DNA of 64,000 nt from an uncultured Acidimicrobiia bacterium (GCA_963836205.1 CAWIIV010000017.1:160001-224000), one strand, 5' to 3'; positions 1-18,825 are shown, numbered from the stretch's first letter. Notes: generated by a model not told the origin, from the sequence alone. Numbers and translations are program-made.

Positions 1-111
1 GGGCAAGTTCTTGCATTGGACGTGACGATCGACCAGATGGCGGCGATCACAGAGTTGCCATGGGTTGAGGCTCTGTCTCTGTCACACGAACTACGACCGC
101 TTCGATCCTGA
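1..111 (+). CDS. C-terminal part of a small propeptide/I9-inhibitor-like protein (5' end outside window), paralog of 2577..2843
   Basis: Frame 1 translates GQVLALDVTIDQMAAITELPWVEALSLSHELRPLRS*; aligns without gaps to the C-terminus of the 2577..2843 protein (15/35 identical, shared ALDxT...WVE..S.S..LRPL). Not in the ORF track. Confidence 0.75.
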   Translation, partial: GQVLALDVTIDQMAAITELPWVEALSLSHELRPLRS

Positions 112-724
112 TAACTCGTCGCTAGAAAGCCAGCTGAATGACGGGCGGACGACTGTTCGATCCCTATCAAGGAGGGTGAGGGTCCTTGGATGGTTGACCG
201 TCCCTCATAGCCAAATATCTCAGAGCACCAGGCCTTTGGAGGCTCCCAAAACTCGGGGTTGAGCCCACTGCGTGATGCGCTCGGGGCGTGCAGAATGCAA
301 TGCGGATTCGACAAGCCTAGGCATCCTGCGTGATCGTGGATCGGAAAAATGGCCTTAGCGTGAGTGCCGACGCGCGTAATAGCCGAGTACGGCTCGATTC
401 TTAGCTAGCTCAGGAGCACTCGGGTTCTTGAGTAGCTACCTCGGCCTCTGGGCCGGCACTCGGCAGCGTCAAAGTTTGAAGCAAACTGTAATCCTGTAGC
501 AATCCAGTAGAAACCCGCCCGTGTCACAGCATAGGGACGATGCACCAAGAGGAATGCGTTCAGCCAAAGATTTCGACTATGTCCAGATTCGAGAGAGCTG
601 CGATAGCGTCGTCGGGGAGCCCAAGTTGGCGAACACGACGTATCAGCGGCCCCCGCTCGGACTCTCAGGGAGGTGATAGCGCACGACTCGAGTCATCGTG
701 GATGGACGGCGGAGGGAGATGGGC

Positions 725-2521
725 ATGCACGACGACGACCCGCCTGACCAAGGCTCGGCACGTCTGCCAACGCCTAGATCGCATCGAAGCGGGCCCTTCC
801 CGGAGCATCCGCTCAGGAAGACTGGTCGCACGACCACCCACTCCTTCGCACCGAGCGAAAACCTTGCTCCACGTCGAGGAGCAAGGTCTCCGTGGGTCGA
901 GTCGGTTGTACCCCCGCTCCATGCCGATTCGTCGAACGGTCGCAAACAACTCTGTTGCGGACGCGGCCGCGACCCAAGGGTCGCCGCGATCGGTACGTTC
1001 GTCGGCTTAGTACGGTATTCTGCGGCGCTCGCAACGGCGGGTCGAGAACCCTTGGAGGCCGACGACTTGGAGGAGTGCAGCAGGCGGCTCGGGCTGCCGG
1101 TCGTCATTGATGGGAAGCAGTACACGGGCGATGGCGTGGTCGTTGGTATTGTGGACACTGGGGCTGATGCCTCCCATCCGGCCTTTAAGGACCGGATTCT
1201 ATCGGCTTGGGACCAGCAGAGCGTTGGCTTATACGGACGGCCGAGTGATCGAGGGTGGGGGTTCATTCTTGACGGTGACGACACTCGTTATCTCACCGAT
1301 CCTGAAGGCCACGGAACCCACGTTGCAGCAATAGCTGCTGGATCGAACCATCCAGTGGGAGTGGCACCCGGATCAGACCTAGTTATTGTTCGTTGCGACA
1401 AGAAGACATTCGGAATCCAGGCCGGGGTCGCCTGGATTTTTGAGATTGCAGAGAGCCTCGGGCGTCCTGCAGTCGTCAACGTCAGTTGGGGTGGGGTGCA
1501 TCTCGATCCTCACGACGGCACAGACAGCCTTTCGGAGGCTCTTGACCATCTCGTGGGGCCAGGACGCTTGGTGTGTGTCGCAGCTGGCAATGAGCAGCAT
1601 ATGCACCTTCACGTACGGGTCGAGCTTGGCCGGGACGAGCAGTTTCGGATCCCATTCATGTGGGGCGGTCCGCCATCCCTAGGCGACCTTATCTGGCTCT
1701 CTGGCTGGTGCAGCGGCGAGCTCCCCTCGGCCGTCGGCATTGAGATCGAGGGGGAGCGGATAATTGCTAGTGGATCCGGCGCAGTCGAAACCGCCACTCT
1801 TGGCAACACACCCGCGTACGTCGTTACGGATTGGGCTAGCAACAGACCGGGATTTCGAATCGGCATTCGTCCCCAATTATGTACGGGCGGGCAGGTTCGG
1901 GAGCAGGGAAAGGGTTGGCTCCTACTGAACGGGTGGTCTCTGACCGAGCCAACCAGGATTGACGTCTGGTCCAACGGGCAAGGACTTGAATTCTTCGATC
2001 ACACGAGGGCAGAGCGACCTGCCGCTACGTCAGTCTCTGACGAGTCCATGCTCGCCAGCCCGGCGTGTGCGAACGGGGTCATAACTGTTGGCGCTGTCTA
2101 TGGGCTTCTACAGTGGACGAATCGCCTCGGCCTGACTATTACTGCCGACCGACCCGTTGGTCAGGCCTGCGCCTTCTCTAACTCGGGTCCGACCATGGAC
2201 AATCGCCAAAAACCGGAGGCCGCTGCAGCGGGCTTCGGCGTACGGTCCGCCCGTTCACGACAGTTTGGGACTCAAGTCGGAGAGACAGATGCCGACATAC
2301 TCATGGTGGGAAAGTCCGGAACGAGCATGGCCGCACCGCAGGTCACTGGGCTACTCGCCCTTGGCTTGGAGGCCACAAATGGCGAGCTCGATCCGGACGG
2401 GGCGCGAGCGGCTCTGATCTCGGCGGGCGGCGGGAGGGCATGGAATCGACTGACGGGCTGGGGTGAGCCGGACGCGACTAGGTTCGTCGCCGGGCTGCTC
2501 GACTCCGTACACGAAGGGTAG
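725..2521 (+). CDS. S8 (subtilisin-like) serine peptidase, Csp-type with insertion domain, no signal peptide
   Basis: Catalytic motifs IVDTG, HGTHVA, AAGN, GTSMAAP; long insertion between AAGN and SPA; GGAGGGAG RBS at 711-718 before ATG 725. N-terminal region uncertain. Confidence 0.9.
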   Translation: MHDDDPPDQGSARLPTPRSHRSGPFPEHPLRKTGRTTTHSFAPSENLAPRRGARSPWVESVVPPLHADSSNGRKQLCCGRGRDPRVAAIGTFVGLVRYSAALATAGREPLEADDLEECSRRLGLPVVIDGKQYTGDGVVVGIVDTGADASHPAFKDRILSAWDQQSVGLYGRPSDRGWGFILDGDDTRYLTDPEGHGTHVAAIAAGSNHPVGVAPGSDLVIVRCDKKTFGIQAGVAWIFEIAESLGRPAVVNVSWGGVHLDPHDGTDSLSEALDHLVGPGRLVCVAAGNEQHMHLHVRVELGRDEQFRIPFMWGGPPSLGDLIWLSGWCSGELPSAVGIEIEGERIIASGSGAVETATLGNTPAYVVTDWASNRPGFRIGIRPQLCTGGQVREQGKGWLLLNGWSLTEPTRIDVWSNGQGLEFFDHTRAERPAATSVSDESMLASPACANGVITVGAVYGLLQWTNRLGLTITADRPVGQACAFSNSGPTMDNRQKPEAAAAGFGVRSARSRQFGTQVGETDADILMVGKSGTSMAAPQVTGLLALGLEATNGELDPDGARAALISAGGGRAWNRLTGWGEPDATRFVAGLLDSVHEG

Positions 2522-2576
2522 GGGTTGCGTTGAGCGGGTTCGTCCGAGCTACATGGCGGGGTAGGAGGAGCGTGTG

Positions 2577-2843
2577 ATGACCACGAAGATGGACCAGTCG
2601 AAACTGAGCACCGACCTTCGGCTCGCGCTGTGTGTCGGCGAGCGGGATCACTATCCCGTAGTCGTCCACCTTCTCGAGGCGGTGGATCTTGACATCGTTC
2701 GCAAGTTCGGCGAGGTACGTCTTGGTGCTGACAAGCGCGTGATCGCGCTCGACCTAACCGTCGAGGCCCTGGCGGACCTGTCGCAGCAATCATGGGTCGA
2801 ATCTGTATCGTCGTCGTACGACCTTCGACCGCTGTCGGGCTAG
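2577..2843 (+). CDS. Small stand-alone subtilisin propeptide/I9-inhibitor-like protein
   Basis: Strong RBS AGGAGGAG at 2563-2570; pattern KL...L..AL / VVVH / ALDLTVEALADLSQQSWVESV...LRPL resembles subtilase prodomains; in-window paralog at 1..111. Confidence 0.7.
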   Translation: MTTKMDQSKLSTDLRLALCVGERDHYPVVVHLLEAVDLDIVRKFGEVRLGADKRVIALDLTVEALADLSQQSWVESVSSSYDLRPLSG

Positions 2844-3072
2844 ACCTCTCGACTCAAAGTCCGTCGAATTCGCCCGCCGGCGGTACCAGCGCCTACTGAC
2901 CGCTACCGGGGCCAGCTCTAGGACGCGCGACCGTCACTCGCCTTGGCGATGACGAAGATGTAGCCGGTCGTAGACATCGACGCACCCGCCTTACCCCGCC
3001 CATCGCTGCCGATCGGAGGCAGTTGGTCGCGATCAAGACATGGCGGTCAACCGTCAAGCCGTACAGCGCGCA

Positions 3073-6000
3073 CTAGAGCCCGAGCGCCAGGTGTGGCGGC
3101 TCGATCGTGTACACCCGCTCGACGGTGCGATCGAGGCTCTCGCATGCTTCGGATGCGGCCCGCTGGCTGGCGTCGAAGGCGGTGTCGTCCCAACCACGTG
3201 AACGCCCGAGTGTGGTGACGTCGAAAGCGGCGCAGTGCTGGTCGATGCGAGCCGCCGCCTCATCCCACAGGTCGGCGGCAGCGCCCTGTGCGGGACGCGG
3301 GCCCAGGCGGTCGACGAGGTGGTCGGGCGGGTCGGCGATTAGCCCAGGTATCCGGGCGGCAAGGTCCCGGTCGAGTTCCCGGCGGATGCCATGGCGCTCC
3401 CGGTCGAGGCTGGGGCGCTCCCGTATGGTTGCCTGGGCTCGCTCAAGCGCCGCCTCCAGTTCGGGCCGGTGAGCGTCCAGCTCTGCCATCTCGGCGGTGC
3501 ACGCCTCGATGCGGCCCACCGCTTGGTTCAGGTTCCCCTGGGCCAGTGAGATCTCCGAGCGGTGCAGGCGCCACAGCAGGGGCCGATCGAAGGCTTCGAG
3601 GACGTCCTCGGACTTGTCCCGCGTGAGCTCGGCCTCGGCCAGGCGCCCGGCCAACTCGTCGTTGCGCTGCGTGCTCCGGTCGAGTTGTTCGCTGTACCTG
3701 CCTATAGCGTCCACCGCCCTCGACAGCGAGCGGGTGATCTCGTGCTCCCGCTCCAACAGCTTGCGTAGGTGCGCCCCCTCCAGCTGGTCTCCGAGCCCTC
3801 GGCCGTCGCCGTCGGGCTCCCGCCGTTGCAGCTCGGCCCGGCGGGCGATGGCGGGCTCGTCGATCCAGTCCCGGACCAATGCCTTGCCGACGAGGTCGAC
3901 GGCGGTCTGCTCACCCTGGAGAGCGACGAAGACCTCATTGCTCTGCCGGCCCCTGGTCATGGGCACGTAGACGCCGCGGGTGTCGGTGGGGCCGTCGAGG
4001 AAGAGCAGGGAGCGGTCTACGGTGCGGCCCTGGTTGGCGTGGCTGGTCTGGGCGTAGGCCAGCTCCAGGTGCTCGGCCACGTACTCGGCGGGAAGCCGGA
4101 CCGTGCCCGTGCGACCGGAGACGGTGACGTCGCCCCGGTGGACGTCGGCGACCTTCCACAGGTCGCGGTTCTTGACCATGAGGCCCCGGTCGGTGTGCAG
4201 CTCCCGGTCGTTGCGGCGGGTGGCCACGACGTCGCCCCGGAAGAACTGGTACTCCCCCACCGACACCGAAGGACCGAAGATGTCGATCTCGCCCGCTTCC
4301 GCCCGCAGGTCCTGGGCTCGCAGGTTCAGCTCCACCACGGTCTCGTTCGTCGGCGCCATCATGGCCACGCTCTCGCTCCGACCCCTGGCCTGCCACCAGG
4401 CGTCGACGACCGCCTCCTCCATCTGGCGAGGCGTTCCGCCGTGGAGACGGCCGTGGTGGTCGTAGAGGTGGAGGATCTCGGTGTCGCCCCGGCGCAGGGC
4501 CAGGCTGGCGTCGCGTTCCCACTCGTTGGCGAAGCGGTGGACCCGGTCCAGTTCGATGGCGCCGTAGCAGTTGATGAGATGGCCGAACATGCCCGAGCGC
4601 CCCACCGCGGAGAACTGCAGCGGGTCGCCGACCAGCGCCATGCGCCATCCCCGGGCGTCGGCCAGCTCCGCCAGCTCGGCCAGCTTCGGCGTCGAGACCA
4701 TGGCCGCCTCGTCGACCACGACGGTGGCTCCGGGGGGCAGGTCGTAGCGGTGGTCGGGTGGCCGGTCGAGGCGGTGCTCGACGAGGAGCTTGTCCAGGGT
4801 GTCCGAGGCTAGGCCGGCGTCGGTGCCCAGCACCTCGGCCGCCCCCGCCGAGGGGGCCACGCCAAAGACCGCCCGGCCGTCGGCCCGCAGCTGCTCCACC
4901 GCCGGAGCCACCGCAGAGGTCTTGCCGGTGCCGGCGGGACCGACGACCAGCGCCAGCTCCCGGTTGCCGGCCACCGCCCCCGCCACCTCCAACTGGGGCT
5001 TGGACAGGGCCAGGCTCACTCCCGACGCGTCCAGGGCGACGTCGCCGCCAACGGCGGCCAGGCGGCGCTCGGCCCAGGCGATGAGGCGCTCCTCCTGGGC
5101 GAGGATCTCGGGCGTGGTCAGGGCCCGATCGGCAACCGACTCGGTGATGGGCCGGCCATCGCGTCGCAGGGCCACGCCGTCGGGGATGGGCCTGGAGATG
5201 TCGACCAGGCGTTCGGCGATGACCGCCTCACCCAGCTGGTGCAGCCACGGCACGAGGATCTCGGCATCGAGGGCGACGTCGGTGGGCACGGCCGCCGCCA
5301 GCTCCCGGACCAGCTCGGCCGGCCGCCAGCTCGACTGGGTCTCGGTCAGGGCCTTGAGGGCTCGGGAGACGATCAGCTCCTGTGTCGCGGTGTCCATCGC
5401 CCGGCCGGCGCTCGGCTGCGACACGGCCGCGCCGACGACGTACTCGGGGTCGTGGCCGATGGCGGTGGCCCGCTCGGCCCACTCCGCGTGCAGCGACCAA
5501 GCGTCGTCGCCGTGGGACTTCGACGGCCGGCTCTCGGTCACCGCCTCCCGCTCCAGGCGCCAGCGCTCACGGGGGGTGGGGTCTCGCTCGAAGGACTCGA
5601 CGAAGCGCTCGAGCTTGTCCTCGATCCGCTCCTCCACCGCCTTGGTGCGGGAGGAGAACTCGGCCAGCACGTCGTCGGGGACGCCCTTCATTTCGGCGAT
5701 GCCGTGGACCGGCTCGGCCCACTCCACCCCCAGGGAGCGGGTCAGCTCGGTCCGCAGGCTGGCGTGGTAGAGGGCGGACAGCGTCCGCTGGTCGCACTTG
5801 ATGGTGCGGGCGTCCAGCGCCAGCCAGCGGCCGTCATCGGCGACGACCCGGTTGGCGATGACCACGTGGGTGTGCAGCTGGGGGTCCAGCGCCCGGCTGG
5901 TGTGCTGGCGGAAGCAGGCGGCGGCGATGCCCTCGGCGTCGAGCGTGCGGACCTGGCCGCCGATGCGGTAGCGGGTGTGGGCGTGGTCCTCGATCCAGTC

Positions 6001-6354
6001 GACCATGGCCACCACCGCGCTGTCGTGGGCGTCGAGCACCGCCGCCCGGGTGGCGTCGTCGCCCAGGGCGAAGAGCACCGACACCGACTTGGGCGCCGAG
6101 GCGGTGACGTCGAAGCCCCGCACCGATCCCTCGCCGTAGTTGCGACCGAGCGCCTCGCCGGTGCGGGGTTCGAGTCCGGCCATCAGCGCCAGGAAGGCGT
6201 CGTCGTCGACCTCGTTCACCAGCCCGAGTCGGCTGGCGCCGAAGCCCTGCCACGCGCCGGCGGGCTCGCCTGCGTCGAGGTAGTAGCTGGGCAGGGCCTC
6301 GACGTAGTAGAGGCCGGCGTCAGGGCCCTTGAGGGTCGTGACCCGAACGGTCAT
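3073..6354 (-). CDS. MOBF (TrwC/TraI-like) relaxase-helicase
   Basis: N-terminus MTVRVTTLKG...YY...YY, FDVTASAPKSVS, HUH motif QHTSRALDPQLHTHVV, Walker A GPAGTGKT, VVDEA, YAQTSHANQGRT; C-terminal coiled coil. Confidence 0.95.
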   Translation of the reverse strand: MTVRVTTLKGPDAGLYYVEALPSYYLDAGEPAGAWQGFGASRLGLVNEVDDDAFLALMAGLEPRTGEALGRNYGEGSVRGFDVTASAPKSVSVLFALGDDATRAAVLDAHDSAVVAMVDWIEDHAHTRYRIGGQVRTLDAEGIAAACFRQHTSRALDPQLHTHVVIANRVVADDGRWLALDARTIKCDQRTLSALYHASLRTELTRSLGVEWAEPVHGIAEMKGVPDDVLAEFSSRTKAVEERIEDKLERFVESFERDPTPRERWRLEREAVTESRPSKSHGDDAWSLHAEWAERATAIGHDPEYVVGAAVSQPSAGRAMDTATQELIVSRALKALTETQSSWRPAELVRELAAAVPTDVALDAEILVPWLHQLGEAVIAERLVDISRPIPDGVALRRDGRPITESVADRALTTPEILAQEERLIAWAERRLAAVGGDVALDASGVSLALSKPQLEVAGAVAGNRELALVVGPAGTGKTSAVAPAVEQLRADGRAVFGVAPSAGAAEVLGTDAGLASDTLDKLLVEHRLDRPPDHRYDLPPGATVVVDEAAMVSTPKLAELAELADARGWRMALVGDPLQFSAVGRSGMFGHLINCYGAIELDRVHRFANEWERDASLALRRGDTEILHLYDHHGRLHGGTPRQMEEAVVDAWWQARGRSESVAMMAPTNETVVELNLRAQDLRAEAGEIDIFGPSVSVGEYQFFRGDVVATRRNDRELHTDRGLMVKNRDLWKVADVHRGDVTVSGRTGTVRLPAEYVAEHLELAYAQTSHANQGRTVDRSLLFLDGPTDTRGVYVPMTRGRQSNEVFVALQGEQTAVDLVGKALVRDWIDEPAIARRAELQRREPDGDGRGLGDQLEGAHLRKLLEREHEITRSLSRAVDAIGRYSEQLDRSTQRNDELAGRLAEAELTRDKSEDVLEAFDRPLLWRLHRSEISLAQGNLNQAVGRIEACTAEMAELDAHRPELEAALERAQATIRERPSLDRERHGIRRELDRDLAARIPGLIADPPDHLVDRLGPRPAQGAAADLWDEAAARIDQHCAAFDVTTLGRSRGWDDTAFDASQRAASEACESLDRTVERVYTIEPPHLALGL

Positions 6355-6360
6355 CCGCGC

Positions 6361-6410
6361 CACCCGCCCGCGGGTGTGCACTCGTCTGTCCTGAATTGCG
6401 ACAGGGGGGT
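6361..6410. other. Candidate oriT/nic region
   Basis: Inverted repeat CACCCG-N4-CGGGTG followed by TGCACT, plus CTGTC...GACAG repeat, immediately upstream of the relaxase; GGGTGTG resembles the F-type nic core. Confidence 0.35.
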
Positions 6411-6443
6411 AGTCGGGAGGTTGCTCATGGTTGTCGGGGCCTC

Positions 6444-6806
6444 CTACTTGCTTGATGCGGATCGGGATCGCGTCACGTAGATGCCGGTGCCGGTCAGGTC
6501 GAGGACGTAGGTCGGCGGTTCGAATCGGCCGTGTGTCCTGGCTGTGGCGGTACGGATCACGTGGGCGCGGTGGAATTCGCGGAGTCGTCGGTAGACGGTG
6601 TCCTTCGACAGTCGCGGTAGGCGCTCGGCGATCTGACGGATGCTTGCCTGGACGACGAGTTGGTCCTCGCGCTGGAGAGCGTGGGTGATGAGATCGTGGA
6701 GGATGGCGATGGCATCGGGCCCGTGCCGCTCGACGAACGCGAAGGCCTGGGGATAGCGGTGCTCGATACGGATCTCGTCGATGAGGGCGAGGTTGTCGGA
6801 GCGCAT
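6444..6806 (-). CDS. Winged helix-turn-helix protein (relaxosome accessory or Rep-like)
   Basis: ASIRQIAERLPRLSKDTVYRRLREF HTH followed by a wing (PTYVLDL); co-oriented upstream of the relaxase. Confidence 0.7.
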   Translation of the reverse strand: MRSDNLALIDEIRIEHRYPQAFAFVERHGPDAIAILHDLITHALQREDQLVVQASIRQIAERLPRLSKDTVYRRLREFHRAHVIRTATARTHGRFEPPTYVLDLTGTGIYVTRSRSASSK

Positions 6807-6870
6807 GGATCACACCACCAGTGTTGGTCTTCACGTACGACGATCACTCTGCGAACAAAGAGAGTCCCAA

Positions 6871-8146: not shown

Positions 8147-8301
8147 ATCCTCTATCCTACAGATCACTCGACGGGCCTGCAGATAAGATGTGGACGGAGC
8201 ACGGAAGCGCAGGACCGTCGAACTCTGATGCCGGTACCAATCGGCACGACCTACGGCGCTCGGTGTGAGCCGTGCGGCAGGGATGGCTCAAGGAGGCAGC
8301 G

Positions 8302-9498
8302 ATGCGAGGTCACGTCGCAAAGAAGGGCAACCGCTACTACGCCGTCATCTACGAGGGCATCGATCAGGCCACTGGCCGCCAGCGCCACCGCTGGTACGCA
8401 GGCGGCGCCACCCGCAGGGAGGCCGAGAAGCTCCTCGCCGAGATGGTCAAGCGCAGTCACGACGGTGACTATCGGGCGCCCGAGCGGATCACCCTCGGTA
8501 CCTACCTCGAAGAGCGCTGGCTGCCTGCCAAGCGGGCCCAGCTCCGGCATTCGACCTGGGACTCATACCGGCGCAACGTCGAGATCCACGTCCAGCCCCG
8601 CATCGGCAACATCCCGCTGCAGCGGCTCACCCCGGAGGACCTCGACGCCTTCTACGCCGGGCTGCTCGTCGATGGGCGACGCAACGGTGCCGGTGGCGGC
8701 CTATCGCCCCGTTCGGTGCGGATCATCCACGGGATGCTGCGCAAGGCTCTCGCCGACGCCTGCCGCAAGGGCAGCCTGGTGCGCAATGTCGCCGATCTGG
8801 CCGACCCACCCAAACCCAGCGCGTACGGCAGCAAGGAGATGCGGGTCTGGATGCCGGCCCAGCTCCGCCAGTTCCTCGACGAGATCGACGACCACCGCCT
8901 CGCTCCGGCCTTCTTCCTCTCCGCCAACACCGGGATGCGGCGAGGCGAGGTGCTCGGGCTGCGATGGGACGACGTCGACCTCGACGCCGCTCGCATCTCG
9001 GTCCGTCACGCCGTGCTCAACGTCGCCTACGAGCTCATCCTCGCCGACGTGAAGACCAAGTCGAGCAGGCGCACGATCGACCTCGACGCCCGAACCGTCG
9101 CCGTGCTGCGGGGGTGGCGGAAAGCACAGCTGGAGGAACGACTCGCACTCGGGCGCCGGCCCGACGACGACGGGATCGTGTTCGCCGCGCCCGACGGTGG
9201 CCCGACTCACCCCGACCTGTTCAGCCAGACCTTCGACCGCCACGTCGCCAAGTCGACGCTGCCCCGCATCCGCCTGCACGACCTCCGCCATACACACGCC
9301 ACGATCCTGCTTAAGGCCAGAGTCCCCGTGAAGGTGGTCAGCGAGCGCTTGGGCCACAGCAGTCCGGCGTTCACCATGACCGTCTACCAGCACGTCTTGC
9401 CAGGCATGCAGGCCGATGCTGCGGCGATGTTCGGCGATGTGGTCTTCGGCGAGGAGCGGAACGCGCCACAGCAGCAGCCTGAAGCGAGTCCAGTCTGA
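8302..9498 (+). CDS. Tyrosine recombinase/integrase (ICEBs1-like, arm-binding N-terminus)
   Basis: TGMRRGEVLGLRW, HDLRHTHAT, VSERLGHSS, TMTVYQH; AGGAGG RBS at 8291-8296. Confidence 0.95.
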   Translation: MRGHVAKKGNRYYAVIYEGIDQATGRQRHRWYAGGATRREAEKLLAEMVKRSHDGDYRAPERITLGTYLEERWLPAKRAQLRHSTWDSYRRNVEIHVQPRIGNIPLQRLTPEDLDAFYAGLLVDGRRNGAGGGLSPRSVRIIHGMLRKALADACRKGSLVRNVADLADPPKPSAYGSKEMRVWMPAQLRQFLDEIDDHRLAPAFFLSANTGMRRGEVLGLRWDDVDLDAARISVRHAVLNVAYELILADVKTKSSRRTIDLDARTVAVLRGWRKAQLEERLALGRRPDDDGIVFAAPDGGPTHPDLFSQTFDRHVAKSTLPRIRLHDLRHTHATILLKARVPVKVVSERLGHSSPAFTMTVYQHVLPGMQADAAAMFGDVVFGEERNAPQQQPEASPV

Positions 9499-9547: not shown

Positions 9548-11941
9548 GTGGTGACCAACAAGAAGGCGCTGAGCGAGTCGGACATCTGCGACCGCTTCAT
9601 CACGCCAGCGGTCACCAGGGCCGGCTGGGCGCCCAACCGATGGCGGCGCGAGTACGGGTTCACCGACGGCAAGATCATCGTTCGGGGCAAGCTGGTCGCA
9701 CGGGGCAAGCGCAAGCGCCTCGACTACCTGTTGTTCCACACGCCGAACCTGCCGATCGCCTTGATCGAGGCGAAGGACAACAGCTACTCGGTCGGCTCGG
9801 GCATGCAGCAGGCCCTCGCATACGCGGAGCTGCTCGACGTGCCGTTTGTATTCAGCTCGAACGGCGACGGGTTCCTGTTCCACGACCGAACCGGAACGCT
9901 CGCACACATCGAGCAGACGCTGACCCTCGATGAGTTCCCCTCGCCCGAGACCTTGTGGGACCACTACAGGCAGTGGCGCAGTCTCGAGAAGGCCGACGAG
10001 GACGTCGTCTCCAGCTCGAACTACGTCGAGGCCGGCGGCAAGGAGGCCCGGTACTACCAGCAACTCGCCATCAACCGCACCGTCGAGGCGGTCGCCCGGG
10101 GTCAGCGGCGCCTCTTGCTGGTCATGGCCACCGGGACAGGCAAGACCTACACCGCCTTCAACATCATCTGGCGGCTCTGGAAGAACAAGACCGCCAAGCG
10201 AGTGCTGTTCCTGGCTGATCGCAACATCCTCGTGGACCAGACGATCCAGAACGACTTCCGCCCTTTCGGCGGGGTCATGAAGAAGCTGAACCGGGGCCTG
10301 GTCGACGAGCACGGCCGTATCGACACCTCGTACGAGATCTACCTCGGGCTCTACCAGGCGATCATGGGCAGTGAGGACAAGGAGCCGATCTACGACAAGT
10401 TCCCGAAGGACTTCTTCGATCTCATAGTGATCGACGAGTGCCACCGGGGCTCAGCGGCGGAGGATTCGGCGTGGCGGGAAGTCCTCGCCTACTTCGACTC
10501 CGCCATCCAGCTAGGAATGACGGCCACTCCGAAGGAGACGAAGTACGTCTCGAACATCCACTACTTCGGTGAGCCGGTCTACACGTACTCCCTGAAGCAG
10601 GGCATCGAGGACGGGTTCCTCGCCCCCTACAAGGTGGTGCGCGTCGATCTCGACCACGATCTCCTCGGATGGCGCCCCGAGGAGGGCCAGGTCGACGACG
10701 CCGGCGAGCTGATCGAGGATCGTATCTACAACCCGAAGGACTTCGACCGCGACATCGTCTTCCCGCAGCGGGACACGCTCGTCGCCGAGCGAATCTCGTC
10801 GTTCCTGCACGGCACCGACCCGATGCACAAGACAATCGTGTTCTGCCAGAGCATCGACCACGCGGAGCGGATGCGGCAGGCCCTCGTGAATGTGCCCGAG
10901 AACGCACCCCTCGTCCACGTCGACCACCGCTACGTCATGCGGATCACGGGGGACAACGATGAGGGCAAGGCCCAGCTCGACAACTTCATCGACCCCAAGC
11001 GGCCCTACCCAGTGATCGCCACCACGTCGAAGCTGATGAGCACCGGCGTTGACGCCCAGACCTGCCATGTCATCGCCCTCGAACAGCGGATCCAATCGCT
11101 CACCGAGTTCAAGCAGATCATCGGCCGCGGTACCCGCCTGCGTCCCGACTACGGCAAGTACTTCTTCACGATCATCGACTTCCGAAAGGCCACCGAGCTG
11201 TTTGCCGACCCTGATTGGGACGGCCCACCAATCCAGATCTACGAGGTACCCGAGAGCGCCGAAGACGTCACCCCACCCGACCCGACTCTCGCCGACGAGC
11301 CGATTGAGGACGAGATCGACGTGATCCTCGCCGACCCCGACCACGTCATCGACGACGCCGAGCTCGACGACGATGACCGCCACGTCTACGTGGTGAGTGG
11401 CGTGACATTCACCGTGGTCGCCGAGCGGGTGCAGTACTACGACCGCGACGGCAAGCTAATCACCGAGTCGCTCAACGACTACACCCGGCGCACGGTGCAG
11501 GAGGAGTTCGCCACGCTCGGCGAGTTCCTCAAGCGGTGGAACAACGCCGAACGAAAGCAGGTGATCGTCGACGAGCTACTGGAGCGGGGCGTGCTGCTCG
11601 AAGCGCTGGAAGCCGCCACCGGCGGCGGGCTGGATCCGTTCGACCTGATCTGCCATGTTGCTTTCGACCAGCCGGCACTCAGCCGCCGGGAACGGGCCGA
11701 TAACGTGCGCAAGCGCGACGTGTTCACCAGGTACGGCGACCAGGCCCGTGAGGTCCTCTCCGCCCTCCTCGAGAAGTACGCCGACCAAGGCCTCGGCTCG
11801 ATGGGTGAGATCGAGGTCCTCAAGCTTGACCCGTTCCCCGAACTAGGGACACCCATCGAACTGGTCCGTAGGTTCGGCGGACGCGACCAGTACCTCGCCG
11901 CGCTGCGCGAGATCGATGCCGCCCTTTACGAACCCGCCTGA
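9548..11941 (+). CDS. hsdR: Type I restriction enzyme R subunit (EcoAI/EcoEI-like)
   Basis: D..IEAK nuclease motif, MATGTGKT, DECHRGSA, TATP, TGVD, QIIGRGTR; C-terminal DPFDLICHVAF. Confidence 0.95.
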   Translation: MVTNKKALSESDICDRFITPAVTRAGWAPNRWRREYGFTDGKIIVRGKLVARGKRKRLDYLLFHTPNLPIALIEAKDNSYSVGSGMQQALAYAELLDVPFVFSSNGDGFLFHDRTGTLAHIEQTLTLDEFPSPETLWDHYRQWRSLEKADEDVVSSSNYVEAGGKEARYYQQLAINRTVEAVARGQRRLLLVMATGTGKTYTAFNIIWRLWKNKTAKRVLFLADRNILVDQTIQNDFRPFGGVMKKLNRGLVDEHGRIDTSYEIYLGLYQAIMGSEDKEPIYDKFPKDFFDLIVIDECHRGSAAEDSAWREVLAYFDSAIQLGMTATPKETKYVSNIHYFGEPVYTYSLKQGIEDGFLAPYKVVRVDLDHDLLGWRPEEGQVDDAGELIEDRIYNPKDFDRDIVFPQRDTLVAERISSFLHGTDPMHKTIVFCQSIDHAERMRQALVNVPENAPLVHVDHRYVMRITGDNDEGKAQLDNFIDPKRPYPVIATTSKLMSTGVDAQTCHVIALEQRIQSLTEFKQIIGRGTRLRPDYGKYFFTIIDFRKATELFADPDWDGPPIQIYEVPESAEDVTPPDPTLADEPIEDEIDVILADPDHVIDDAELDDDDRHVYVVSGVTFTVVAERVQYYDRDGKLITESLNDYTRRTVQEEFATLGEFLKRWNNAERKQVIVDELLERGVLLEALEAATGGGLDPFDLICHVAFDQPALSRRERADNVRKRDVFTRYGDQAREVLSALLEKYADQGLGSMGEIEVLKLDPFPELGTPIELVRRFGGRDQYLAALREIDAALYEPA

Positions 11942-11952
11942 CCGGAGCGACC

Positions 11953-13416
11953 GTGTCCCTTTCGACCACCATCAAGTCCATCCAGGACATCATGCGCAAG
12001 GACGCCGGCGTGGACGGCGACGCCCAACGGATCGGTCAACTCGGCTGGATGTTGTTCTTCAAGATCTTCTCTGACCTCGAGATCCAAACCGAGCTCGAGG
12101 ACGATCACTACGAGTCTCCGGTCCCACCGTGGCTTCGGTGGGACGTATGGGCCAACGAGGACCTTGCCGGCACAAGCGCGCCGACCGGCGACGACCTCCT
12201 GGACCTCGTCGACAACTCCTTGTTCCCGGCGCTGAAAGAGCTGGACCTCGCGAGCTTCACCGGTGGGGCCCGCCTGCGGGCTGAGCTGCTACGCAGCGTC
12301 TTCGAAGGCGCCTTCAACTACATGAAGTCCGGCACGCTGATGCGTCAGGTGATCAACAAGATCAACCACGACCTCGACTTCAACGAGTCAAAGACCCGCC
12401 ACACGTTCGGCGAAATCTACGAGCAGATCCTCAAGGGCCTCCAGGGCGCCGGCAACGCCGGCGAGTTCTACACACCCCGCGCTGCCACGCAGTTCGCAGT
12501 CGACATGGTCAAGCCCCGATTCGGGGAGGTAGTGCTCGACCCGGCGTGTGGCACCGGCGGCTTTCTCACCTGCACCTACGAAAACGTTCGCCCTCAGGCC
12601 GACACCCTGCCGAGACTCACGCAGCTGAAGGCGAGTATCCGCGGCGTAGAGAAGAAGCCGCTCCCCCATCTGCTGTGCGTCACCAACCTTATGGTCCACG
12701 GGGTCGAGGTGCCGACGATCCGCCACGGCAACACTCTCGCCCGGCCGCTGCGCGATTACGGCCCGGCGGACCAGGTCGATGTGATCGTCACCAACCCGCC
12801 CTTCGGCGGAATGGAGGAGGACGGGATCGAGGGCAATTTCCCTGCCGAGTTTCGTACCCGGGAGACCGCTGACCTGTTTCTCGTGCTGGTGATGGAGCTC
12901 CTCAAGGACGGCGGTCGGGCGGCCATCATCCTGCCGGACGGGACGCTGTTCGGAGAAGGCATCAAGACCCGCATCAAGCGCAAGCTCCTGGAGGAGTGCG
13001 ACCTCCACACGATCGTCCGGCTCCCCAAGGGCGTCTTCGCGCCCTACACCACGATCAAGACGAACATCCTGTTCTTCACCAAAGGTGAGCCCACTAAAGG
13101 CGTCTGGTTCTATGAGCACCCATATCCCGAGGGCGCCAAGAGCTACTCGAAGACCAAGCCCATGCGGATCGAGGAGTTCGAGCCGGAAAAGGCGTGGTGG
13201 AACAACCGCGAGGAAACCGAGCGGGCCTGGATGGTCACCGCGGAGGATATCGCCAGTGGTGACTACAACCTCGACATCACCAACCCGAACACGGTCATCG
13301 AGGGCCACGAGGACCCCGACGTGCTGCTCGCCCGCTACGAGGAAGCGAACGCCGAGGTCGAAGAAGCCCGCGAGGCGTTGAAGTCCCTCCTCAGCGAATT
13401 ACTCGTTGGCGAGTGA
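11953..13416 (+). CDS. hsdM: Type I R-M methyltransferase subunit (N6-adenine)
   Basis: GEFYTPR, LDPACGTGGF, NPPF motif. Confidence 0.95.
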   Translation: MSLSTTIKSIQDIMRKDAGVDGDAQRIGQLGWMLFFKIFSDLEIQTELEDDHYESPVPPWLRWDVWANEDLAGTSAPTGDDLLDLVDNSLFPALKELDLASFTGGARLRAELLRSVFEGAFNYMKSGTLMRQVINKINHDLDFNESKTRHTFGEIYEQILKGLQGAGNAGEFYTPRAATQFAVDMVKPRFGEVVLDPACGTGGFLTCTYENVRPQADTLPRLTQLKASIRGVEKKPLPHLLCVTNLMVHGVEVPTIRHGNTLARPLRDYGPADQVDVIVTNPPFGGMEEDGIEGNFPAEFRTRETADLFLVLVMELLKDGGRAAIILPDGTLFGEGIKTRIKRKLLEECDLHTIVRLPKGVFAPYTTIKTNILFFTKGEPTKGVWFYEHPYPEGAKSYSKTKPMRIEEFEPEKAWWNNREETERAWMVTAEDIASGDYNLDITNPNTVIEGHEDPDVLLARYEEANAEVEEAREALKSLLSELLVGE

Positions 13417-15044
13417 TGTCCGCTCATACCTTGCTCGCGAACTTCGGCACGATCGTTGAGTCCCCCGACGGAGTTGCGCGCGCACGGACCCTCATCCTCG
13501 ATCTGGCAACGCTGGGACGGCTTACTGTGCGCATTCCGAATGACGACCAGCGCCGATCTTCGGACGACTCACGTTTAGACGAGCTCCCGCCGGGTTGGCG
13601 CTGGGTCCCCCTGGAGTCGACCGGCCGTCTCGTCACAGGGACGAGCGCGAACTCGCTCGCCAAGGAACGCCTGGCGAGCGTCCGATCTGGCGTCCCCTAC
13701 GTGGCAACCAAGGATGTCGGCTATGGAAATGAGGAGATCCGCTACGACACAGGCCTCCTGGTGCCCGAGGATTGCCTGGAGTATAAGCGTGCCCGTCCGG
13801 GTGCGGTCCTGCTGTGCCTCGAGGGCGGCAGCGCAGGCCGAAAGATGGGTATCACTGACCGTACGATCTGCTTCGGCAACAAGCTGCTCGCGAACGAGAC
13901 CTACGACGACGTCGACCCGACATATCTCCTCTATTGCTACCTATCGACGCGCTTCCAGACCGAGTTCAGGAGGAGGAAGACAGGGATCATCGGTGGAATC
14001 TCCAAGAAGGCAGTCGCCGAGATAGAGATCGCACTTCCTCCAATCGACGAACAGCACTTCATCGTTGCGAAGGTCGCTGAGCTGATGCGGCTCTGTGACC
14101 GACTCGAAGCCGGCCAAGCGCTCCGACAGCACGCTGCAACGCGGCTCAGGGAGTCCTCGCTCATGGCGCTGATCGCGGCCGAGAACCAAGAGAGTCTCAG
14201 CGCTGCTTGGTCTCGTCTTCGCGCCAACTGGAACGCTGTTACCAACGCCTCGAACGCAATCGACTCACTCCGCCAGACCGTTCTCCAGCTCGCCGTTCGG
14301 GGCAGATTGGTCCCGCGGGGCGAAACCTCGACCGGAACGGCAGGCGAGCTCGTCGAGGCCACGAGGGAGCGGCGCAAGCAGGTCGAGCACGAAAGGGGTC
14401 TTCGCCAACCGAAGAACCTCACCGAGATCAGCGAGGTTGCAAAACCCTTTGACCTACCAACGGGTTGGGCGTGGGCGCGGTTTTCCGAACTCGGTGAACT
14501 CGCCCGAGGCAGATCCCAGCACCGGCCGAGGAACGATCTGACGCTGTACGTCAATGGGGCCGTGCCTCTGATCCAGACGGGCGATGTGGCACGGGCCGTC
14601 GGCACGATTCAAACCTGGTCAACCACCTATAATGAGAAGGGCCTTGCCCAGAGCCGGCTTTGGCCAGCAGGCACGCTGTGTATCACGATCGCAGCAAACA
14701 TCGCCGACTCCGCCCTACTTGGCTTCGACGCGTGCTTTCCGGATAGCGTCGTGGGCTTTGTCCCATTCAAACCGATCCCGGACGCACGCTACTTCGAGTA
14801 CTTCATGCGAACCGCGCAGTCTTACCTCGAACAATTCGCTCCTTCTACGGCTCAGAAGAACATCAACCTCGCCATTCTCGACGAACTTCTGATTCCGCTC
14901 CCACCGGCCGAGGAGATGCACCGCATCGTGCAGCGGGTCGAGGCTCTGTTGGGTCTGTGTGACGTGCTCGAAGCACGACAGATGAACAGCGACACAGCCT
15001 CAGCCGAGCTCACAGGGTCCCTACTGCAAGCGATCGCGAGCTAG
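13416..15044 (+). CDS. hsdS: Type I R-M specificity subunit
   Basis: Two TRDs flanked by ELPPGW/DLPTGW and LPPIDEQ/LPPAEEM conserved regions; overlaps the hsdM stop. Confidence 0.9.
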   Translation: MSAHTLLANFGTIVESPDGVARARTLILDLATLGRLTVRIPNDDQRRSSDDSRLDELPPGWRWVPLESTGRLVTGTSANSLAKERLASVRSGVPYVATKDVGYGNEEIRYDTGLLVPEDCLEYKRARPGAVLLCLEGGSAGRKMGITDRTICFGNKLLANETYDDVDPTYLLYCYLSTRFQTEFRRRKTGIIGGISKKAVAEIEIALPPIDEQHFIVAKVAELMRLCDRLEAGQALRQHAATRLRESSLMALIAAENQESLSAAWSRLRANWNAVTNASNAIDSLRQTVLQLAVRGRLVPRGETSTGTAGELVEATRERRKQVEHERGLRQPKNLTEISEVAKPFDLPTGWAWARFSELGELARGRSQHRPRNDLTLYVNGAVPLIQTGDVARAVGTIQTWSTTYNEKGLAQSRLWPAGTLCITIAANIADSALLGFDACFPDSVVGFVPFKPIPDARYFEYFMRTAQSYLEQFAPSTAQKNINLAILDELLIPLPPAEEMHRIVQRVEALLGLCDVLEARQMNSDTASAELTGSLLQAIAS

Positions 15045-18813: not shown

Positions 18814-18825
18814 GGCGCGGTCAGC

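Follow-up and report, generated by a model that had tools for sequence, protein, structure and literature searches.

The window analysed here, a 64,000-nucleotide stretch of DNA from an uncultured Acidimicrobiia bacterium, opens with a locus that we interpret, at a probability of about 0.65, as encoding a cytoplasmic Csp-like protease of the subtilisin family together with two separately encoded prodomain copies, which would serve as folding helper and active-site plug. Computation supports a predicted partnership of the protease with a prodomain-like inhibitor or chaperone supplied in trans. On sequence comparison, the split form seen here (no fused prodomain, two free paralogues) is a rare variant of a widespread two-gene module. 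This module is apparently undescribed in the literature; a full-text search returned no description of a Csp-like protease paired with a separate prodomain paralogue. The features of the locus and of the island around it are as follows.

1..111, plus strand: 3′ end of small ORF A (whole gene G000:C17:159821-160111, or L002 17821-18111; 96 aa)
112..1066, no strand: ~955-nt spacer in which no gene is recognised; the long protease ORF reaches into it by a spurious 5′ extension (698-1066)
1054..1058, plus strand: Shine-Dalgarno-like GGAGG, 8 nt 5′ of TTG 1067; read from the sequence, with the choice of start inferred
1067..2521, plus strand: Csp-like S8 serine protease, 484 aa, stop codon 2519-2521; Pfam S8 match and alignments
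2563..2568, plus strand: AGGAGG, putative ribosome-binding site of ORF B, 8 nt 5′ of ATG 2577; read from the sequence
2577..2843, plus strand: small ORF B, 88 aa; AF2 model, fold matches, hhalign and predicted complex
3073..6834, minus strand: TrwC-type relaxase/helicase of the mobile island; Pfam TrwC E 1.9e-76, AAA_30 E 2.6e-49
8272..9498, plus strand: tyrosine integrase; Pfam match
9548..15044, plus strand: type I restriction-modification genes hsdR, hsdM and hsdS; Pfam matches

The protease scores 131.9 bits on Pfam Peptidase_S8 (PF00082; cut-off 21.8, E 3.6e-38). Its catalytic residues D30, H82 and S420 (numbered from 1067) keep the Asp-His-Ser order and are invariant across all 69 aligned relatives, and the oxyanion residue N175 is conserved in at least 90% of them. 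Moreover, a crude hydropathy test detected no hydrophobic segment at the N-terminus of the protease or of the small ORFs. An initial sequence-only reading had described an S8 protease without signal peptide and with intact D, H, N and S motifs, and the Pfam match, the alignments and the hydropathy test bear this out. The long S8 ORF spans 698-2521, but its first ~120 codons (698-1066) have no counterpart in relatives and their codon-position GC is flat; the likely start is the TTG at 1067, behind its GGAGG. Alignment shows that the fused prodomain is missing from the protease and that the jellyroll insert is kept. The closest solved sequences are Tk-SP (9ues_B and 3afg_A; E ~1e-21) and CspB (E 5e-14), and the closest relative of all, P0002 (445 aa, 46-50% identity), likewise lacks the N-domain.

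ORF B begins 55 nt after the protease stop and has its own ribosome-binding site, as the sequence-only reading had stated. That reading had further placed a paralogue just upstream of the protease. The paralogue is there, since ORF A ends at 111 and shares 40% identity with ORF B (E 6.4e-14 in a search of its own genome), but ~955 nt separate it from the protease. In the same genome there is a single protease of this type (1 strong match), flanked by two small paralogues (2 matches). Contrary to what had been supposed, the module is therefore not repeated; a single protease lies between two small paralogues. The spacer (112-1066) shows no coding signal, its codon-position GC being flat, and tRNA and Rfam scans found no RNA genes in the upstream 5 kb that includes it. 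Searches of the spacer for a remnant of the N-domain found none (all E above 0.05), no promoter or terminator consensus exceeded chance in 1-3100, a repeat search gave short chance-like matches only, and no other copy of the spacer was found in the genome.

Both small proteins carry the same motif near the C-terminus, ORF A ending in LRPL plus two residues and ORF B in LRPL-SG. ORF A scores 18.9 bits on a stand-alone-type HMM versus 4.5 on a fused-N-domain HMM, and its codon-position GC of 0.60/0.41/0.64 shows coding periodicity. ORF B is the counterpart of a conserved gene found 3′ of the protease in relatives. In the split clade, all 5 stand-alone proteins are matched by the fused-N-domain HMM (E 5e-8 to 7e-5 for each sequence). 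In hhalign these proteins match the N-domain family at 93.3% and the downstream-small family at 98.1% (E 9.6e-14, 82 columns). HMM scores favour their descent from the downstream type over the N-domain type. An unrooted tree, built from 34 of 123 rows by taking one in three small proteins and one in five N-domains, does not place the split-clade proteins decisively with either type. The small gene is under purifying selection, with dN/dS of 0.13-0.49 in the pairs that could be read, 6 out of 8.

The AF2 model of ORF B (pLDDT 88.7, pTM 0.78) has a compact alpha/beta prodomain fold, a four-stranded sheet against two helices, with an extra N-terminal helix preceding the core. Its best chain in VIA is ProN-Tk-SP (3afg_A; Z 9.4, rmsd 2.7, 83 aligned), and among its other matches are the Tk-subtilisin propeptide (2z58_B, Z 7.6), the BPN′ prosegment (Z 6.6-6.9), the I9 inhibitor POIA1 from its subtilisin complex (1v5i_B; Z 6.0, rmsd 2.5, 63 aligned) and the CspB prodomain (4i0w_A, Z 5.8). 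The top 18 VIA rows (Z 9.4 to 5.8) comprise 17 subtilase prodomains or pro-enzymes and POIA1. The proposal that the 88-aa protein resembles a subtilase prodomain thus holds, both in the predicted fold and in its homology to the fused N-domains. ORF B matches 0 Pfam families at E up to 1, and neither Pfam nor NCBIfam holds a model for the small protein. Inhibitor_I9 (PF05922) gives sub-threshold matches only, in 18 of 123 relatives (best E 0.012), as does CspB_prodomain (PF18425) in 2 of 123 (best E 0.18), and a PDB sequence search with the small-protein profile returned only chance-level matches to ribosomal protein L28 (E 1.2-1.4).

Folding and docking covered ORF B of the two small ORFs. The protease and ORF B are predicted to form a complex with an ipSAE of 0.88 (0.88, 0.88 and 0.87 in three runs) versus 0.01 for the best of 3 controls. 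Of solved complexes, 116 of 157 attain this mark, as do 2 of 215 mismatched pairs, a calibration that holds only roughly here because our own alignments were used. In the model the partner has a pLDDT of at least 86, and at least 97% of contacts are common to the runs. On the protease side the predicted interface comprises D30-31, H82-85, N174-175 and 416-421; on the side of ORF B it comprises residues 80-88, which touch D30, H82, N175 and S420; Leu86 of ORF B contacts Ser420, and Leu83 contacts 112-117 and 141-142. In the model the C-terminal LRPL sits in the active-site cleft, as the sequence-only reading had anticipated. However, complexes of propeptides with subtilases and of Csp proteins have already been solved, and the result may therefore only reflect likeness to them.

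Relatives of the protease are Csp-like proteins of ~575 aa with a prodomain, a subtilase domain and a jellyroll insert, and the family numbers ~1400 or more. The N-terminal prodomain is fused in 80 of the 80 genome loci examined, and a stand-alone paralogue of ~90 aa lies 3′ of the protease on the same strand in 58 of them, within 700 nt in 53 of these; a small gene upstream or on the other strand was found at 0 of the 80. The small gene is missing nearby in the remaining 22 loci, only 4 of which have less than 400 nt of DNA downstream. Searching 400 genomes of the same order with the small protein gave matches in 5, every one abutting a family S8 gene (4 of 4 if G347, which is unpublished, is left aside). 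Where cyanobacterial genomes lack the gene at the locus, the small partner was found elsewhere in 3 of 3 tested, 17 kb to 1.46 Mb away, whilst the 2 of 2 Streptomyces genomes tested yielded no free small copy at E up to 0.001. Among 42 downstream proteins, 18 extend 9-12 residues beyond the motif; with about half of them running past it, not all can be mimics of a pre-cut product.

Full-length proteins (564-682 aa) make up 115 of the 119 relatives listed. The four shorter ones are P0002 and P0004, without the N-domain, P0003, a C-terminal piece, and P0111, which is cut within the N-domain. P0002 and the stand-alone protein P0123 are singletons with the same sources and the same longest contig (149,284), indirect evidence that P0002 probably shares a contig with P0123 as its partner. 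An apparent contig-length match that placed P0124 on L099 proved to be coincidence, which weakens this argument but does not void it. A metagenome scan with four split-clade proteases returned 80 loci, none of which holds P0002, P0003, P0004 or P0122-P0124; three of the loci (L083-L085) are further fused forms with a small gene downstream. The calcium-dependent protease PrcA (Alr1381) of Anabaena may be a studied member of the family; published passages place it beside futA.

Among the closest known systems are the clostridial Csp germination proteases (CspB, CspA and CspC), which act on pro-SleC in spore germination, and the fused relatives share their prodomain, subtilase domain and jellyroll insert. 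The model of the fused relative P0043 (pLDDT 91.8, pTM 0.90) falls under pLDDT 50 only in the linker that follows the N-domain (106-112). As a single body, model residues 28-578 superpose on CspA/CspC (9pr8_B; Z 41.8, rmsd 2.5, 473 aligned), residues 2-578 on ProN-Tk-SP (Z 40.6) and residues 44-578 on unprocessed pro-subtilisins (Z ~35), whilst plain subtilisins align over 260-333 residues. Across Csp structures, Foldseek gives E 1.7e-37 to 6e-33 with TM 0.73-0.82, and VIA gives Z 41-42 over 418-483 aligned residues. By sequence, too, Csp is the best named family, the fused relatives matching NCBIfam CspBA at E 1e-31 to 9e-37. However, scores stay far below the curated cut-offs: on CspBA (NF040809, cut-off 1250) the window protein reaches 37.6 bits and fused relatives reach 109-126, and on CspC (NF040808, cut-off 675) the window protein reaches 18.1 bits. 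The family also differs from Csp in its hosts, which are cyanobacteria, actinobacteria and others without endospores, and in its context: neither the tandem cspABC arrangement nor a SleC setting is seen at family loci, and no SleC-like neighbour appears in the Pfam panels of the window, the 14 other-phylum loci or the 3 same-order loci. Moreover, family loci have in addition a prodomain paralogue with a gene of its own, an arrangement that we have not found described for Csp loci, and the window protease lacks any cis prodomain.

Tk-SP and Tk-subtilisin of Thermococcus kodakarensis are the closest solved proteins to the protease by sequence and their propeptides are the top fold matches of ORF B; however, these archaeal enzymes are secreted, carry their propeptide in cis, have no free paralogue and lack the Csp-type insert (363 residues aligned versus 473-483 for Csp). 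The I9 inhibitors, stand-alone proteins of small size, each inhibit a cognate subtilase and share with the ORF B model the fold of a subtilase prodomain. Those listed in PMC6993865 are Pleurotus POIA1, yeast PBI2, Arabidopsis SPI-1, Toxoplasma MIC5 and Plasmodium SUB1-ProM, the last encoded beside subtilase genes; the examples given there are all eukaryotic, and its authors suggest convergence. The small protein here differs in being bacterial, cytoplasmic and usually operonic, in being demonstrably paralogous to the prodomain of the enzyme itself, and in falling short of the Pfam Inhibitor_I9 threshold. To our knowledge, free prodomain mimics that restrain a subtilase are known mainly from eukaryotes. 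Some secreted S8 proteases use an external folding chaperone, and among bacterial proteases Csp is notable for keeping its prodomain as a gate.

CspB offers a guide to how the pair may work. As described in PMC3567191, its prodomain stays bound and occludes the active site, the C-terminal P3-P1 residues form the gate, and a prodomain supplied in trans both restores folding and blocks the active site. By analogy, the free prodomain-like protein would bind the catalytic domain in the manner of a cis prodomain and assist its folding. It would then stay bound as a plug, with LRPL in the S4-S1 pockets and Leu86 positioned, in the prediction, on the catalytic Ser. As LRPL fills these pockets the active site would stay shut, an inhibition suggested by CspB and the I9 inhibitors, and proteolysis would begin once the plug was removed or degraded. 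More speculatively, one paralogue may be mainly a foldase and the other the gatekeeper. Counting against this interpretation are that the free partner is not obligatory in the family, the ~955-nt spacer and the uncertain protease start.

The island has a GC content of 0.59-0.67 versus 0.72-0.77 in the flanks, and carries the TrwC relaxase, integrases and integrase fragments, HsdR, HsdM and HsdS, and a Gp49/HTH pair, in agreement with the earlier claim of a mobile island with type I restriction-modification. The window's copy of the module is alone in lying on an island that bears a relaxase, integrases and type I restriction-modification. Its distribution is sporadic: searches found it in neither of 2 other genomes from the genus and in none of 9 from the family. 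Gene neighbours lack conservation across 14 loci from other phyla and are mostly housekeeping, a pattern repeated at 3 same-order loci; peptide deformylase, amylase, ATP synthase and UvrB are examples. The sequence-only reading had looked to neighbourhoods for linkage and for defence-island enrichment: homologues of the small ORF are indeed linked to S8 genes, but their neighbours are mostly housekeeping.

That reading had interpreted the trans protease-inhibitor pair as an addiction or guard-type defence module. The structural half of this is supported, whilst the defence half keeps the position on the mobile island as its sole support. The protease would here be a toxin held by a labile inhibitor, and loss of the island or phage interference with that inhibitor would free proteolysis and kill or arrest the cell. 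The company of relaxase, integrases, type I restriction-modification and the Gp49/HTH pair on low-GC DNA fits such a role, as does the sporadic distribution, and a cytoplasmic protease that is tightly plugged, as predicted, would follow toxin-antitoxin logic. S8 proteases are part of known defence systems. The PADLOC 'subtilase' model PDLC03014 matches the protease (E 2e-26), but more weakly than the generic Pfam S8 model does; a bacterial gasdermin preprint names subtilases only in a figure legend. IetAS resembles the locus in using an S8 protease intracellularly and on mobile DNA; however, the window protease scores 19.3 bits (E 7e-5) with IetS of PADLOC and 12 bits with IteS of NCBIfam (cut-off 900), its relatives score 28-47 bits with these models, and IetS is ~750 aa. 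No IetA-like ATPase lies next to the protease, whose neighbours are ORF A, ORF B and the TrwC relaxase. Moreover, unconserved housekeeping neighbours argue against defence as the family's role, the small partner can be unlinked or not found, and fused relatives already have an inhibitor in cis. Taken together, we consider a defence role distinctly unlikely.

The split form could instead be a decaying relic, a broken and nonfunctional copy of a fused gene carried by the island. The missing N-domain, the 955-nt upstream stretch without coding signal, the integrase fragments on the island and the rarity of the split form speak for this. However, all three ORFs are intact and each has a ribosome-binding site, the catalytic residues are all present, and coding periodicity is seen in the small ORFs. 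The identity between ORF A and ORF B is just 40%, which points to an old duplication of which both copies were kept. P0002 also lacks an N-domain and probably lies on a contig with P0123, and the complex is predicted with confidence. We therefore regard decay as quite improbable. Least probable of all is that the small proteins help folding only, with no later inhibition: the absence of a cis prodomain from the protease and the restored folding of CspB fit this, but the trans prodomain of CspB also blocks the active site (PMC3567191), the predicted tail of ORF B lies on the catalytic Ser, and fused relatives own a cis foldase yet retain the free paralogue.

Returning to the proposed latch on the Csp-like protease, a bolder and unlikely extension is that the paralogue is a regulated gate, that the island copy is an addiction or abortive-infection switch, and that the usual form in filamentous cyanobacteria and actinobacteria is a Csp-style trigger for exit from dormancy, outside the endospore formers. 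If so, a signal or gene loss would remove the plug and set off proteolysis. The pairing of a cytoplasmic Csp-like protease with a separate paralogue of its own prodomain spans several phyla. The window offers an experiment of nature, in that the cis prodomain is lost and two trans copies are left, which makes the foldase and gatekeeper roles genetically separable. Should the island copy prove to serve defence, addiction modules would gain a protease-inhibitor type. More broadly, the module raises the question of what purpose tightly latched proteases may serve in the cytoplasm of cyanobacteria and actinobacteria.

The protease gene lies in a long ORF whose flanks carry the following features; L002 is the stretch of the same contig that reaches upstream of the window.

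1-111, forward strand: 3′ end (frame 1) of ORF A, 96 aa; whole gene at L002 17821-18111
112-1066: spacer of ~955 nt separating ORF A from the protease
698-2521, forward strand: long ORF, Pfam Peptidase_S8 (E 3.6e-38)
1054-1058, forward strand: GGAGG, read from the sequence as preceding a TTG at 1067
2519-2521, forward strand: protease stop
2563-2568, forward strand: AGGAGG ahead of the ORF B ATG
2577-2843, forward strand: ORF B, 88 aa, ATG at 2577, 55 nt past the protease stop

The first ~125 residues of the long ORF show no homology, relatives aligning only from near residue 125, and codon-position GC stays flat as far as about 1066. Because these observations coincide with the GGAGG before the TTG, we infer that the gene is 1067-2521, encoding 484 aa, and number residues from that start. 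The S8 protease with intact D/H/N/S motifs of the sequence-only reading was borne out, D30, H82 and S420 being invariant in 69/69 aligned sequences and N175 present in at least 90%, as were the downstream ORF with its own ribosome-binding site and the upstream paralogue, ORF A being 40% identical to ORF B (E 6.4e-14). The same reading called the module repeated; the whole genome holds two small genes and only one protease of this kind, so it is instead a single protease flanked by two paralogues. The spacer contains no coding periodicity, Rfam match, tRNA match or N-domain remnant, has no second copy in the genome and holds no repeat.

A search with the catalytic part returned 1445 proteins at E <=0.001 among 8000 scored candidates. 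The 120 matches listed comprise the window's own gene call, 115 proteins of 564-682 aa and four shorter ones (337, 445, 488 and 496 aa). The long relatives open with an N-terminal domain of ~110 residues that the window protease lacks. A profile of this N-domain matches 5/5 stand-alone small proteins (per-sequence E 5e-8 to 7e-5), namely ORF A, ORF B and the sole three other ORF B matches (85-101 aa) in 1.8 billion representatives; since it matches all five, the small ORFs are, by sequence, homologues of the family's N-terminal domain. None of 116 long proteins has an N-terminal hydrophobic segment above threshold, and the family is presumably cytoplasmic.

ORF B, folded with 123 relatives, gave a model with pLDDT 88.7 and pTM 0.78. 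Foldseek gave weak E values (0.03-0.3), not surprising for so small an alpha/beta domain, and the top chains were still subtilase propeptides. By VIA, the best match was ProN-Tk-SP (Z 9.4, rmsd 2.7, 83 aligned), followed by the propeptide of Tk-subtilisin (Z 7.6), the prosegment of BPN' (Z 6.6-6.9), POIA1, an I9 inhibitor (Z 6.0), and the prodomain of CspB (Z 5.8). The modelled fold is thus consistent with the proposed prodomain resemblance; by sequence, ORF B falls short of the I9 family. In the ESM Atlas, a downstream small protein from a relative's locus (L057:7556-7825) matches unnamed ~90-aa clusters from Cyanobacteriota and Actinomycetota. Its next cluster comprises 62 free-standing 97-aa Bacillota proteins with Pfam CspB_prodomain, a lead that free copies may also lie beside true Csp proteases.

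In complex prediction, the window protease paired with ORF B scored 0.88, 0.88 and 0.87 in three runs, against 0.01 for the best of three controls. The mark applied is reached by 116/157 solved complexes and 2/215 mismatched pairs; because similar complexes have been solved and alignments built for this analysis were supplied, passing it points to likeness to solved complexes and is not proof of binding. The partner's pLDDT does not fall below 86, and the runs have 97% or more of their contacts in common. ORF B residues 80-88 are placed against D30, H82, N175 and the 416-421 loop, with Leu86, the last of the C-terminal LRPL, contacting Ser420 and Leu83 contacting 112-117 and 141-142. LRPL in the active-site cleft had been named beforehand as support for the pairing, and this is the placement predicted.

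We examined 80 genome loci with relatives (L003-L082), drawn from cyanobacteria, Streptomyces, Acidimicrobiales, Planctomycetota, Blastocatellia, Poribacteria and others. All 80 proteases carry a fused N-domain, and 58 loci have, downstream and on the protease's strand, a separate ORF of the same family (~90-100 aa). It lies within 700 nt at 53 of the 58 and abuts or overlaps the protease stop at several; at 0/80 loci was it upstream or on the opposite strand. No small gene lies nearby at 22 loci, four of which have <400 nt of DNA downstream. Whole-genome checks of five of the 22 found a free prodomain paralogue elsewhere in 3/3 cyanobacterial genomes (1.46 Mb from the protease in G401, locus L036; 166 kb in G402, L056; 17 kb in G403, L080) and in 0/2 Streptomyces genomes (L010, L012) at E <=0.001. 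Conversely, the small proteins match five of 400 genomes of the window's order, with 0/2 in the same genus and 0/9 in the same family. Every such match abuts an S8 gene of the same family, in keeping with the expected co-occurrence, and the four published genomes (the fifth, G347, is unpublished) have a fused N-domain plus a small ORF overlapping the protease 3′ end. The dN/dS of the small gene is 0.13-0.49 in the six readable of eight pairs (one misaligned, one saturated); the gene is under purifying selection.

An animal-haem-peroxidase-family gene adjoins the module in three same-order genomes (L079:4126-5565, L171:3242-4708, L172:2541-4007), which may be plain shared synteny of close kin. 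Heterocystous cyanobacteria that form akinetes supply most of these 80 best-matching loci, and Streptomyces some. Dormant cells occur in both groups, and Csp proteases, the closest characterised relatives, function in spore germination; this predominance may be sampling bias.

The downstream-type profile scores ORF A at 18.9 and ORF B at 25.8 bits, against 4.5 and 12.0 bits for the fused-N-domain profile. In an unrooted tree of 34/123 sequences, the five stand-alone proteins of the split clade group together (100/100), separate from the N-domains (100/98). The window thus represents a rare derived form, marked by loss of the cis domain and duplication of the free paralogue. P0002 (445 aa), the closest relative, likewise lacks the N-domain; on indirect evidence, it and the free protein P0123 probably lie on one contig of 149,284 nt, although a size coincidence of the same kind for another protein pair proved to be chance.

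An addiction or guard-type defence role had been proposed for the pair. The window copy does lie in a low-GC mobile island that holds, besides the type I R-M noted earlier, integrases, a TrwC relaxase and a Gp49/HTH pair, and the module was not found in the same-genus and same-family genomes searched. However, this copy is a contextual exception: the neighbourhood survey found non-conserved, mostly housekeeping neighbours at 14 loci of diverse phyla and at three of the same order, and neither the window protease nor its relatives reached the cut-offs of the defence models. We therefore regard such a role as an unlikely, minority possibility; of the original proposal, the predicted binding and prodomain fold stand.

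Three tyrosine-integrase genes or fragments are present, two upstream of the window (L002:8154-8504 and L002:15589-16509) and one at window 8272-9498. The 116-aa fragment L002:8154-8504 duplicates C-terminal sequence of the L002:15589-16509 integrase, which suggests that islands inserted in tandem, or one within another, at a single site. The Gp49-like (HigB-type) gene followed by the HTH gene (L002:8632-9449, reverse strand), in the same low-GC region, is probably a toxin-antitoxin pair. To the right of the island, UPF0182 and DivIVA-domain genes of high GC (window 15883-21621, reverse strand) mark the return to core chromosome.

A model of the fused relative P0043 (pLDDT 91.8, pTM 0.90; the linker after the N-domain is its sole disordered stretch) superposes as one body, N-domain included, on C. 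difficile CspA/CspC (Z 41.8, 473 aligned), CspB, ProN-Tk-SP and unprocessed pro-subtilisins. Some 150 more residues align here than with plain subtilisins, and they correspond to the Csp jellyroll insert. NCBIfam CspBA is the top-ranked model for the family, which scores far below its cut-off; the family is Csp-like in build, not a Csp orthologue. Free prodomain mimics as such are already known, those listed in PMC6993865 (POIA1, PBI2, SPI-1, MIC5, SUB1-ProM) being eukaryotic. In the main text of open-access papers, full-text searching gave no description of a cytoplasmic Csp-like protease paired with a free prodomain. For CspB, the closest solved relative with the same build, PMC3567191 reports that a trans prodomain rescues folding of the enzyme lacking its own prodomain and prevents labelling of the active site, and that removing the prodomain's last 3-4 residues reopens the site. 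With a probability of roughly two in three, we propose that the trans prodomain would act both as chaperone for, and as gate on, a latent cytoplasmic protease.
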